Origin: Vampirovibrionaceae bacterium NZW_1234
GTDB taxonomy: Bacteria; Cyanobacteriota; Vampirovibrionia; Vampirovibrionales; JAGQHJ01
Direction: 5' to 3'
Length of the DNA: 64,000 nt
Assembly (NCBI GenBank): GCA_041697335.1
Contig: JBGUGD010000038.1
Location: 64,001-128,000, forward strand
The first letter of the stretch is position 1. Each line of letters begins with the position of its first letter. The notes under the pieces are model-generated. The model was not told where the DNA came from. It worked only from the letters and a program-made list of their open reading frames with translations, and made no database searches. Below are positions 35,414 to 37,345 of this stretch, piece after piece. A program made the position numbers and the translations under genes.

Positions 35414-36922
35414 TTAAACATCCTTACGAACGCCGGGAAAGTCTACTTTCCCGGTTAGTTTGTATGTGACCCAGTGTTGGAACTTGGGCGCCAGCCAGCC
35501 AATGCACACGCCGCTGATGACATAGCTGGACAGCAGCGCAATGGTCTTGTACCGACCCGTCAAGGCCAGCATCCCAGGCATCCGGGTGCTGTTCACCTTC
35601 ATCAGCCGGGTGGCCAGTCCGGGAGCCACGTGGGACGAAGTCCGTTTGAAGAGACCCATCTGCCGGGGCAACCAGAGCAGTAACCGCTTTAAGGCATCTT
35701 CCTCGGCGGGGGCGCTGATCAGCAGGCCTTTTAAATCTTCCACATCCACCAGCTTCCGGGGGTCTAACAGATAGTGGTGCTTCGTGGAGGAGACCTTGCC
35801 GCCGAAGATTTTCCGGAAGGCGGTCAGGGGCAGGGATTCTTTGGAAGACAAGACGTGAAGCTTATTCTGTAACCGGGCCAATTCCAGAATCGGGTCCTTA
35901 TCAAACCTGCCGGTCAAAGGATTTAACCGCTTGGCAATCTCATCAAAGGCATTCTTGCCGGTTAAGCCTTTGAAGAAGGCCAGTTGCTCCTTCCACAGCT
36001 CAGGCTTGAACTGCTTTTTCTTCAGCCACGCCAGAGAATCGTAGGTCAAGCCGGTAAACACGCCTTTGGATTTGTCAAACCACCGCTTCAGATGCCCCTT
36101 CACATAGTCCCCGAGGAAATAGAGAAACAGGACAATGGACCCTTCCCGAATGGCCACTTCCGTCCGATCCACCCAGTTCCGGGCCTTGTACAACCGGCCG
36201 CCGGAAATCCCCATATCGATGGCCACGTTGCCGTAGAACTCGCTGTTGATGAGATTGGCAATCCCTTCCAGCAAACCGGCATTCCCACCAAACCGAGGGT
36301 AGGGTTGGGCTGCTGCCCATGCCGGCTGCTGTAAGGGCCCCCTCAGCCCTGTGGGGCTGAGCCCAACCTGATGACTGGATGCGATAGAACCCGAATTTTT
36401 GGAAAGAAGCGTGTGAAGCGCCTCAAAATTGATGCTTTTCTGGGGCTCGGAAACCTTGGGGGTGCTCTCCTTGCTGAGCTGGAACCGGGTAATGGCCTGG
36501 TTAATGGAGGGAATCACCCACCCGATAATGGCCACCGGAATAATGGTGCCAATCAGAAACTTGGCGATGTTGGCTTTCAAATAATCGTTCTTCCGGGAGA
36601 GAATCCACTGGGGAATGGCTTGCTGGTTTTTCTTCAGGAAGAGCATAATATCGACCTTGGGGTCCAGCCCTTTCCACCGCATCATGGGGTTCAGAATCCA
36701 CTTTTCCAAGGCCTTCCGACCGGCCAGCCAGACCAGGGTGGTGCTGAACTCCTCGATCATCCGCTCCCGGCCCGCATGATTGGCCCCGACGCCACCCCGA
36801 TTGTATTCCATTGCGCTTCTGCCGGCGTTATCAATGAGGTCCTTCACCCACAACGGGTAAAGGGAGTGCTCATTGTCGAGCGCCGAGAAGACTTTGGTTG
36901 TAACAGCGGGGGAGATTCTCAT
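35414..36922 (-). CDS. Hypothetical membrane-associated protein with internal two-fold repeat
   Basis: 502 aa; halves end in IIGWVIPSINQAITR and CIGWLAPKFQHWVTY; linker contains YPRFGG. Confidence 0.75.
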   Translation of the reverse strand: MRISPAVTTKVFSALDNEHSLYPLWVKDLIDNAGRSAMEYNRGGVGANHAGRERMIEEFSTTLVWLAGRKALEKWILNPMMRWKGLDPKVDIMLFLKKNQQAIPQWILSRKNDYLKANIAKFLIGTIIPVAIIGWVIPSINQAITRFQLSKESTPKVSEPQKSINFEALHTLLSKNSGSIASSHQVGLSPTGLRGPLQQPAWAAAQPYPRFGGNAGLLEGIANLINSEFYGNVAIDMGISGGRLYKARNWVDRTEVAIREGSIVLFLYFLGDYVKGHLKRWFDKSKGVFTGLTYDSLAWLKKKQFKPELWKEQLAFFKGLTGKNAFDEIAKRLNPLTGRFDKDPILELARLQNKLHVLSSKESLPLTAFRKIFGGKVSSTKHHYLLDPRKLVDVEDLKGLLISAPAEEDALKRLLLWLPRQMGLFKRTSSHVAPGLATRLMKVNSTRMPGMLALTGRYKTIALLSSYVISGVCIGWLAPKFQHWVTYKLTGKVDFPGVRKDV

Positions 36923-36968
36923 GGAGAGGGGCGTTCCTACGGTTTCTGGGGTAACGGGGGAAGGGCTT

Positions 36969-37006
36969 GAAACAAATCAGCCCCGGCAGGTGTCTTGCCG
37001 GGGCTG
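36969..37006 (-). terminator. Attenuator terminator 2
   Basis: Minus strand cagccccggca-loop-tgccggggctg followed by atttgtttc. Confidence 0.75.
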
Positions 37007-37028
37007 TAGGTCGTTTGGGTGTGTCTGT

Positions 37029-37127
37029 TTATGACAACGAACGCCAGCCTCGGCACAATCCAGGGCGGCGACGGCGTTGTTGCTGTTGCGCTTGTCTCAG
37101 GCTGGTTGTCACGAGGTTGAGGTTCAT
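37029..37127 (-). CDS. Leader peptide 2: MNLNLVTTSLRQAQQQQRRRRPGLCRGWRSLS
   Basis: Translated by hand; 3' part complementary to the 5' arm of the downstream terminator. Confidence 0.72.
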   Translation of the reverse strand: MNLNLVTTSLRQAQQQQRRRRPGLCRGWRSLS

Positions 37128-37165
37128 TGCGGGGGAGGTCCTGTTTCTGGTTTAGGGCTGTAACG

Positions 37166-37200
37166 AAAAACCACGGATCTTGTGTTGTGGATCCGTGGTT
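37166..37200 (-). terminator. Attenuator terminator 1
   Basis: aaccacggatc / gatccgtggtt 11-bp stem followed by a U-run on the minus strand. Confidence 0.78.
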
Positions 37201-37236
37201 GTAAGCTGTTTATGCGGTTTTTTAAACGAGCAACTT

Positions 37237-37308
37237 TTACCGTGGATCCACCTGAGGTTGGCGGCTACGGCGACGGCGTTGTTGTTGCTGTGCAAAAAGT
37301 TGACTCAT
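37237..37308 (-). CDS. Leader peptide 1: MSQLFAQQQQRRRRSRQPQVDPR
   Basis: Translated by hand; shares AQQQQRRRR with leader 2. Confidence 0.72.
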   Translation of the reverse strand: MSQLFAQQQQRRRRSRQPQVDPR

Positions 37309-37317
37309 AGTACAGTC

Positions 37318-37345
37318 ATTATCACTGTAAAAAGCATATTGTCAA
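37318..37345 (-). promoter_or_regulatory. Sigma70-like promoter for the leader region
   Basis: TTGACA-16nt-GATAAT ending 9 nt before the ATG of leader 1. Confidence 0.55.

Follow-up and report, generated by a model that had tools for sequence, protein, structure and literature searches.

Two serial Arg-codon leader peptides as candidate ribosome-mediated attenuators of a membrane-protein gene in the Vampirovibrionales

The locus and its two leader units

The stretch of DNA considered here (the window) comprises 64,000 nucleotides (nt) of contig JBGUGD010000038.1, positions 64,001 to 128,000, from Vampirovibrionaceae bacterium NZW_1234, an organism represented by a metagenome-assembled genome. 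Positions are those of the window, and all evidence is computational. On the minus strand, a gene for a protein of 502 amino acids (aa) is preceded by two small open reading frames (ORFs), each of which carries four Gln codons followed by four Arg codons and is closed by its own hairpin and U-rich tract (Table 1). The pair probably represents two serial ribosome-mediated leader-peptide attenuators, which would sense slow decoding of Arg codons and gate the gene downstream, a membrane-protein gene specific to the Melainabacteria.

Table 1. Coordinates of the putative leader elements and of the gene downstream
Feature	Position	Strand	Details
Sigma-70-type promoter-like site	37318..37345	-	-35 TTGACA at 37345-37340, -10 GATAAT at 37323-37318; 16-nt spacer; 11/12 matches
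Leader ORF 1	37237..37308	-	23 codons and stop; Gln4-Arg4 and one more Arg at 37290-37261
Antiterminator 5' strand, unit 1	37239..37251	-	Last codons of ORF 1; pairs with 5' arm and loop of terminator 1
Intrinsic terminator 1	37162..37200	-	Hairpin 37200-37169, -16.3 kcal/mol, then U-rich UUUCGUU
Leader ORF 2	37029..37127	-	32 codons and stop; Gln4-Arg4 run at 37088-37065
Antiterminator 5' strand, unit 2	37045..37055	-	Within ORF 2; stop codon 13 nt further on
Intrinsic terminator 2	36970..37006	-	Hairpin 37006-36978, 11 pairs, 9 G-C, -23.2 kcal/mol, then AUUUGUUU
Regulated gene	35414..36922	-	502 aa; no family name

The initial annotation of this DNA proposed a layout of the trp/his type. On re-reading of the minus strand, the coordinates it gave for the promoter, both micro-ORFs, both hairpins and both complementarities all check out, and the parts of such a layout, i.e. 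a leader ORF, a regulatory codon run, an ORF-internal antiterminator strand and an intrinsic terminator, are all present. The complementarity between ORF and terminator arm is that of GUGGAUCC (37251-37244) with GGAUCCAC (37194-37187) in unit 1, and of UGCCGAGGCUG (37055-37045) with CAGCCCCGGCA (37006-36996), with one mismatch, in unit 2. The regulatory codons are clustered: within ORFs of only 23 and 32 codons, 5 and 4 Arg codons, respectively, lie in a 7-codon window after the four Gln codons, and all five in ORF 1 and all four in ORF 2 are CGC or CGU.

How unusual are these units? A degenerate codon pattern for Gln4-Arg4 occurs twice in the window, where 0.00 occurrences are expected (100 shuffles), and in the whole 3.7-Mb genome it is found solely at these two sites. 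The two 27-nt cores differ at four positions, each of them a third codon position and each change synonymous. A genome-wide scan for small ORFs that have three consecutive Arg codons and a terminator, and that lie outside long ORFs, returned 14 candidates; the two units of the window are the sole tandem pair among them and the cleanest cases. Rfam holds no relevant family: there were four matches, at E values of 0.4-5.3, none of them near its gathering score and each to a model of a eukaryotic snoRNA, miRNA or lncRNA.

The ATG of leader ORF 1 sits 9 nt past the -10 box. The 5' untranslated region of the leader transcript is probably about 3 nt, as counted from a predicted transcription start, and unit 1 would be translated from a nearly leaderless RNA. 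The -35 and -10 blocks and the position of this ATG are kept in two aligned genomes of the same family, and the alignment shows the 3' arm and U-tract of terminator 1 to be conserved among the family relatives. No second minus-strand promoter was found between the two units, only unit 1 having a promoter-like site; unit 2 is therefore probably transcribed only by way of read-through of terminator 1. From the end of terminator 2 to the start of the regulated gene the distance is 55 nt. With a KpsF-like SIS+CBS gene lying upstream, and a convergent ftsH beyond the 502-aa gene, both units serve this single gene. ORFs that overlap the region on the plus strand belong to no family, and there is no tRNA near the locus.

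Conservation of the design and of the alternative pairing

The relatives examined are Vampirovibrionales (Melainabacteria). A profile search of the order found a member of the protein family in 47 of 49 genomes and returned 30 loci, 22 of which represent the short form of the gene. Upstream of the short-form orthologue, a micro-ORF with an Arg window, followed by a hairpin and a U-tract, is present at 19 of the 22 loci. Two of the three misses (G042 and G014) are at loci where contig ends cut the region. An Arg-window leader was found neither at the long paralogues (about 870-1060 aa), which include two in this genome, nor at two family-f2 forms (G017 and G011). Tandem units are present in three of the four family-level genomes that hold the gene, this genome included; in the fourth the contig ends after one unit. 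A scan of metagenome contigs added one distant locus only. In genus g20 and in G014 (loci L016, L018, L033, L034 and L042), the Arg leader and its terminator are separated from the main gene by a small ORF of about 100 codons, which has three copies of a repeat of about 16 residues and then its own hairpin and T-run.

What is conserved is the position and design of the unit rather than its sequence. All 23 units compared below have the Arg-window ORF, but outside the codon run the leader peptides show no conservation between genera. When 40 genomes of relatives were searched for the QQQQRRRR pattern itself, as the initial annotation had suggested, only chance matches inside coding regions appeared, although the design is kept. 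Of the expectation that both peptide and pairing would be conserved, the pairing and the Arg run thus stand, whereas the rest of the peptide varies freely. A Gln run at this place is seen in this genome only; in relatives the Arg run is more often preceded by Asn, His or other residues.

The competing pairing was assessed by a nascent-RNA fold test, applied to 23 units from 20 genomes, in which the folded RNA began 13 nt past the first Arg codon and extended through the terminator loop. The offset of 13 nt approximates the 3' edge of a ribosome with the first Arg codon in its A site, and dinucleotide shuffles served as the null. In all 23 units the partner of the terminator's 5' arm is a strand in the 3' portion of the ORF or at its end, and in 22 of them this strand lies before or over the stop codon. 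The mean z is -2.55, with p<=0.05 in 17 units, and a mean of 0.71 of the arm is paired; an earlier run with 13 units gave the same picture. By comparison, 60 ordinary terminators that follow long ORFs of this genome gave a mean z of -0.16, with p<=0.05 in 8% of cases and pairing over 0.38 of the arm. For the two units of the window, 8 of 11 arm bases are paired in unit 1 (z about -3.0) and 10 of 11 in unit 2 (z -2.6 to -3.0); the unit 2 duplex has a value of -18.7 kcal/mol, which 0.3% of shuffles equal or better. With a plainer duplex test, 7 of 13 units gave a significant result.

Folded at full length and free of ribosomes, both leaders keep the terminator hairpin intact (unit 1, -41.7 kcal/mol, z -3.64; unit 2, -62.8 kcal/mol, z -4.90). 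In these folds the antiterminator strands are held by the 5' part of the ORF, and in unit 1 specifically by the Arg-codon region. Together with the antiterminator pairing, the ribosome-free folds thus provide the three states of a trp-type attenuator. Folding with and without a ribosome footprint, as suggested by the initial annotation, is in line with its reading: the terminators are kept in the ribosome-free state, and a fold that begins at the ribosome edge gives a competing pairing that is specific when compared with the controls. Its proposed layout is likewise kept in relatives, as the survey of the order shows.

Arg codons, His codons and the gene family

The Arg codons are partitioned between the leaders and the gene. 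The leader windows hold 95 Arg codons, of which 41 are CGC, 21 CGU, 28 CGA, 3 CGG, 1 AGA and 1 AGG; 90 of the 95 are thus of the class CGU/CGC/CGA (CGH), where usage in the downstream genes would predict 27.4. The 502-aa gene has 28 Arg codons, with 23 CGG, one CGU, no CGC, no CGA and four AGR. Its CGH share of 0.036 is the lowest among the 1424 genes with >=15 Arg codons (median 0.667), in a genome where CGH accounts for about two thirds of Arg codons. The codon skew of this gene is Arg-specific (chi-square p 1e-10, against p 0.003 for the amino-acid family that comes second) and opposes its general preference for codons that end in C; its Arg content is ordinary (60th percentile). Among 18 relatives, the CGH share of the orthologue is below background in 17, at p<0.05 in 11, with up to 20 kb sampled in each genome as background. 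In the exception, G012, CGA is used in the gene and only CGY in the leader. Some other long ORFs in this genome are also CGH-poor (C15:2698-3624, C37:62355-63113 and others), with CGH shares of 0.18-0.35. The next most CGH-poor genes have no informative Pfam match except for one collagen-repeat protein, and no wider regulon can be named from them.

Do the Gln codons have a part in this? The four residues before the Arg run are rich in Asn, Gln and His (42 of 92, vs 67 of 515 elsewhere in the leaders), and the 502-aa protein is mildly poor in Gln (9th percentile; 5th for the CAA codon). The initial annotation saw in the leaders a sensor of Gln- and Arg-tRNA charging, and through it of nitrogen status. 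The Arg part of this proposal is supported by the leader codons and by the avoidance of CGH in the gene, but the Gln and nitrogen part is not established, given a Gln run seen in this genome only and a gene that is only mildly Gln-poor. That Gln adds a second input in this genome is a weakly supported suggestion. A further idea, whereby Gln and Asn codons report on amide nitrogen via GatCAB, was dropped, since GlnRS and AsnRS, both scoring above curated cut-offs, are encoded in the genome alongside GatB. The GlnRS gene (contig C39, 44587-46800) lies in an open frame of 954 aa whose C-terminal part matches the tail of GatB, and appears to be fused or extended.

The tRNA-Arg genes found in the assembly with ARAGORN have anticodons CCG, CCU, UCG and UCU. 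Neither tRNA-Arg(ACG) nor tRNA-Glu was found by this program in what is an incomplete set of 42 tRNAs for this assembly. ARAGORN also calls a tRNA-His with anticodon AUG beside the usual GUG and a four-base-anticodon oddity on C3, neither of which can be interpreted with an incomplete set.

The regulated protein is helical, with two long hydrophobic helices, and belongs to an unnamed family largely confined to Melainabacteria. Pfam, NCBIfam and PADLOC have no family for it. Its AlphaFold model has a mean predicted local distance difference test score (pLDDT) of 84.5. With this model, Foldseek gave no convincing fold match in the PDB (best E about 1), and a wide VIA-align search reached a best Z of 5.9, which is at the noise level for helical models. 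The ESM Atlas offered unnamed Melainabacteria clusters only. A long paralogue of 867 aa in this genome (C13, about 187500-191500; locus L120) starts 8 nt after a gene for an APC-type amino-acid permease. As a clue to function this link was rejected: it is not conserved, and in 9 of 10 other genomes (loci L122-L132) the upstream gene is an NTP_transferase (sugar-nucleotide pyrophosphorylase-like) gene.

When the whole class was searched, 56 of 161 genomes proved to have the protein family at E<=1e-25, and in the AT-rich family f7 there are three paralogues per genome. At paralogue 1, an Arg-window ORF is present in none of 14 loci, which were not scanned for His runs. The region upstream of paralogue 1 (L080-L093) has an AT-rich block that is conserved across genera beside a divergent gene and might serve as an operator or a promoter. 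Roughly a dozen of the top matches to paralogue 1 show one in-frame TAA or TAG, which may only reflect a profile match that overruns the true start. At paralogue 2, a leader ORF is present in all 12 loci, with the Arg codons CGA CGA in 11 and CGA CAA in one. Upstream of this leader, at least seven of the loci carry one more micro-ORF with CGA CGA, closed by a strong terminator, so that the tandem arrangement recurs; the proximal unit of this group has no obvious U-tract. Paralogue 3 differs from both: the leader at each of the 14 loci contains 4-6 His codons in a row, every one of them CAU, and its ORF ends in a stretch complementary to the 5' arm of the downstream terminator, a pairing of the his type. 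This pairing has z values of -2.5 to -7.4 in 9 of 13 automatic terminator picks, the other four picks being poor.

The gene bodies follow the leaders. When six genes per paralogue were fetched in full, CGH codons made up 0 of 76 Arg codons in paralogue 2, as against 35 of 124 in paralogue 1 and 21 of 68 in paralogue 3. Five of the six paralogue 3 proteins have no His at all and the sixth has two, whereas the six proteins of paralogue 1 total 36 His and those of paralogue 2 total 35. His-free proteins are rare in the family at large (3 of 156 representatives). In a quick maximum-likelihood tree, leader type tracks the paralogue clade, each clade having a support of 100 in the Shimodaira-Hasegawa-like approximate likelihood ratio test (SH-aLRT), and the Arg-leader genes of the order form one group.

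Reading of the leaders and its alternatives

How might the leaders work? From the way the units are built and conserved, from how specific the pairing is and from how the codons are divided between leader and gene, we infer that the leaders are translated, that transcription can end at the hairpins and that a physiological signal acts through the Arg codons. With no ribosome on the leader, or with a ribosome that reaches the stop codon, the ORF-internal strand would be sequestered or covered, the terminator would form and transcription would end. Slow decoding of the Arg run would stall the ribosome, the strand downstream would then pair with the 5' arm of the terminator, and RNA polymerase would read through. 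The run would be sensed as CGU/CGC here and as CGU/CGC/CGA across relatives, and the four preceding Gln codons may contribute in this genome. As both units would have to be passed, read-through would be the product of two probabilities, with a low basal level and a steep response as the outcome. The regulated gene, in which almost all Arg codons are CGG, would still be translatable when CGH decoding is slow. The signal is most likely a shortage of charged tRNA for CGH codons, i.e. arginine limitation as felt by the most-used isoacceptor.

In the theory of selective charging, regulatory codons are those read by the isoacceptor that loses its charge first, and robust codons are used elsewhere (PMC1183508). 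The partition of codons between leader and gene is the arrangement that this theory predicts; by the same theory, the isoacceptor for CGH would lose its charge first because it carries the highest demand. Both His codons are expected to share a single tRNA, so that a gene proof against His starvation would have no robust codon to turn to and would have to omit His, as paralogue 3 does.

Several observations weigh against attenuation at Arg codons. A Shine-Dalgarno sequence before the leader start codons is weak or absent, most leader ORFs having no clear one, and unit 1 would require near-leaderless initiation. Six of the 23 units miss p<=0.05 in the pairing test, and the duplex test is weak for the first units of two relatives. 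G016 has no leader within 1077 nt upstream of the gene. The leader ORF of the second unit in G004 (L009, 1313-1501) meets no stop ahead of the terminator and, at 62 codons, extends into the beginning of the main gene; a unit in decay, a frameshift in the assembly or a different design could each account for it. The relatives are kin, and counts across them overstate independence. The tRNA set of this assembly is incomplete, tRNA-Arg(UCG) and tRNA-Arg(CCG) but no tRNA-Arg(ACG) having been found, and the regulated gene is not one of amino-acid biosynthesis, which leaves a gap in the physiological logic.

Could the peptide, and not the supply of tRNA, be what stalls the ribosome? A nascent poly-Arg chain, often followed by Pro, might arrest the ribosome from within the exit tunnel, with a small molecule as a conceivable trigger, and this stall, not tRNA supply, would then set read-through. 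The basic run is indeed the sole peptide feature common to all units, Pro occurs after or within the run in many leaders, and an Arg-containing leader that senses a ligand exists in the enterobacterial speF (PMC6386406). Arrest gives no reason, however, for 90 of 95 leader codons to be CGH or for the regulated genes to avoid exactly these codons; peptides outside the run are not conserved between genera, and the His-run sister leaders before His-free proteins favour a role for codon or amino-acid supply. Because the conserved determinant is a synonymous codon class and not only a peptide, arrest is unlikely. The initial annotation had left open a two-stage sensor either of tRNA charging or of an arrest motif; the serial units and the sensing of Arg are retained here, and it is the arrest motif that loses ground.

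Other explanations do without control of the downstream gene by a stalled ribosome. Each unit might be a gene in its own right, for an Arg-rich micropeptide or a small RNA, or, in a milder form, the terminated leaders might also act in trans. A good terminator does close each unit, and attenuator RNAs and leader peptides that act in trans have been described for rhizobial trpL (PMC6614838, PMC7298713). But a promoter-like site is present at unit 1 alone, the complementarity of the ORF strand with the terminator arm is specific, the peptides vary freely save for the codon run, Rfam has no match, and a place directly upstream of one gene family is kept across the order and beyond; independent genes are accordingly quite improbable. 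It is also conceivable that the frames are incidental and that CGN repeats in an untranslated RNA bind a protein or RNA that controls the terminator, as in the case of TRAP or PyrR. CGCCGU-like words recur in several leaders, and in the fold without a ribosome the antiterminator strand is paired with the region of the Arg codons. The run, however, lies inside an ORF with a start codon in all 23 units, with a stop near the antiterminator strand in 22; the four core differences between the units of the window are all synonymous; and AT-rich relatives that keep only two CGA codons nevertheless retain the frame. As the codon avoidance in the regulated genes and the His-run parallel would also be left unexplained, a motif of this kind seems very improbable.

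The attenuators that Arg-codon sensing in serial leaders would most resemble are the classical trpL, hisL, leuL, thrL and pheL of Proteobacteria, with a run of codons for a single amino acid and a mutually exclusive antiterminator and intrinsic terminator. In these, too, an anti-antiterminator pairing holds the region of the regulatory codons in the ribosome-free fold, and the synonymous choice of regulatory codons is biased, as treated in PMC1183508. The His-run leaders of paralogue 3 resemble the design of hisL. The differences are that Arg codons are sensed here, that two full units stand in series, that the host is a non-photosynthetic relative of the cyanobacteria, and that the target is a single membrane-protein gene and not a biosynthetic operon; there is no relationship in sequence or in Rfam. 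We know of no classical attenuator in which an Arg run is coupled to a terminator, and an open-access search of the literature on Arg-codon leader peptides and terminators found none. A similar search on leader peptides and attenuators in Melainabacteria or Vampirovibrio found nothing relevant, only leader peptides of RiPPs, the ribosomally made peptides that carry post-translational modifications. As of 2010, leader peptides were regarded as known only from Proteobacteria, Actinobacteria and, newly, Firmicutes (PMC2965389).

The initial annotation knew of no described Gln and Arg attenuator and of no serial double one of this kind. Both halves of this need qualification. An Arg-codon leader ORF is already in print: in orf34 of Salmonella speF, as reported in PMC6386406, pausing at consecutive Arg codons under low arginine alters mRNA folding and downstream expression. 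By that account orf34 makes use of Rho-dependent termination, occlusion of the ribosome-binding site, sensitivity to RNase G and two Arg codons in a conserved peptide, whereas the leaders described here have intrinsic terminators, runs of 3-6 Arg codons and no peptide conservation, and the downstream gene is not a decarboxylase. Serial leader-ORF attenuators are in print as well, in the Salmonella mgtCBR leader, where tandem attenuators control a virulence operon (PMC3641672). The likeness lies in a leader that holds a pair of short ORFs, each of which is expected to control a stem-loop switch of its own, with the two acting in series on one operon. The two mgtCBR ORFs reportedly answer different signals, ATP and proline-tRNA; here both units share the Gln4-Arg4 core, and the series would sharpen one signal, not integrate two. 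Tandem T-boxes and tandem riboswitches are also serial terminator switches for one ligand class with a steeper response. In those, the RNA senses uncharged tRNA or a metabolite directly, whereas here the sensor would be the translating ribosome. New here are the CGH bias of the leaders, the avoidance of CGH by the regulated gene and the split of Arg and His leaders among the paralogues of a sister family.

What might the family do? It is tentatively suggested that its paralogues, across the class Vampirovibrionia, are starvation effectors specific to one amino acid, each wired to one tRNA by its leader and purged of what that leader senses: His residues in one case, and in the other CGH codons, in whose place CGG or AGR is used. 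The Arg leaders would report the state of one isoacceptor and could equally serve as a sentinel for tRNA loss, through failed modification or an anticodon nuclease; the proteins may acquire the missing amino acid from the environment, a host or prey. The textbook mechanism is known almost wholly from amino-acid biosynthesis operons of a few phyla, and the candidate leaders would place it in the non-photosynthetic sister group of the cyanobacteria. The match between leader and gene, CGH-free behind Arg leaders and His-free behind His leaders, would represent a natural, genome-encoded illustration of the selective-charging theory. It also offers a first functional handle on the family, whose members would be produced upon exhaustion of one specific amino acid. 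A run of one codon in the leader, combined with scarcity of this codon or residue in the gene that follows, may serve as a simple computational signature with which starvation-specific genes can be looked for in uncultured bacteria.

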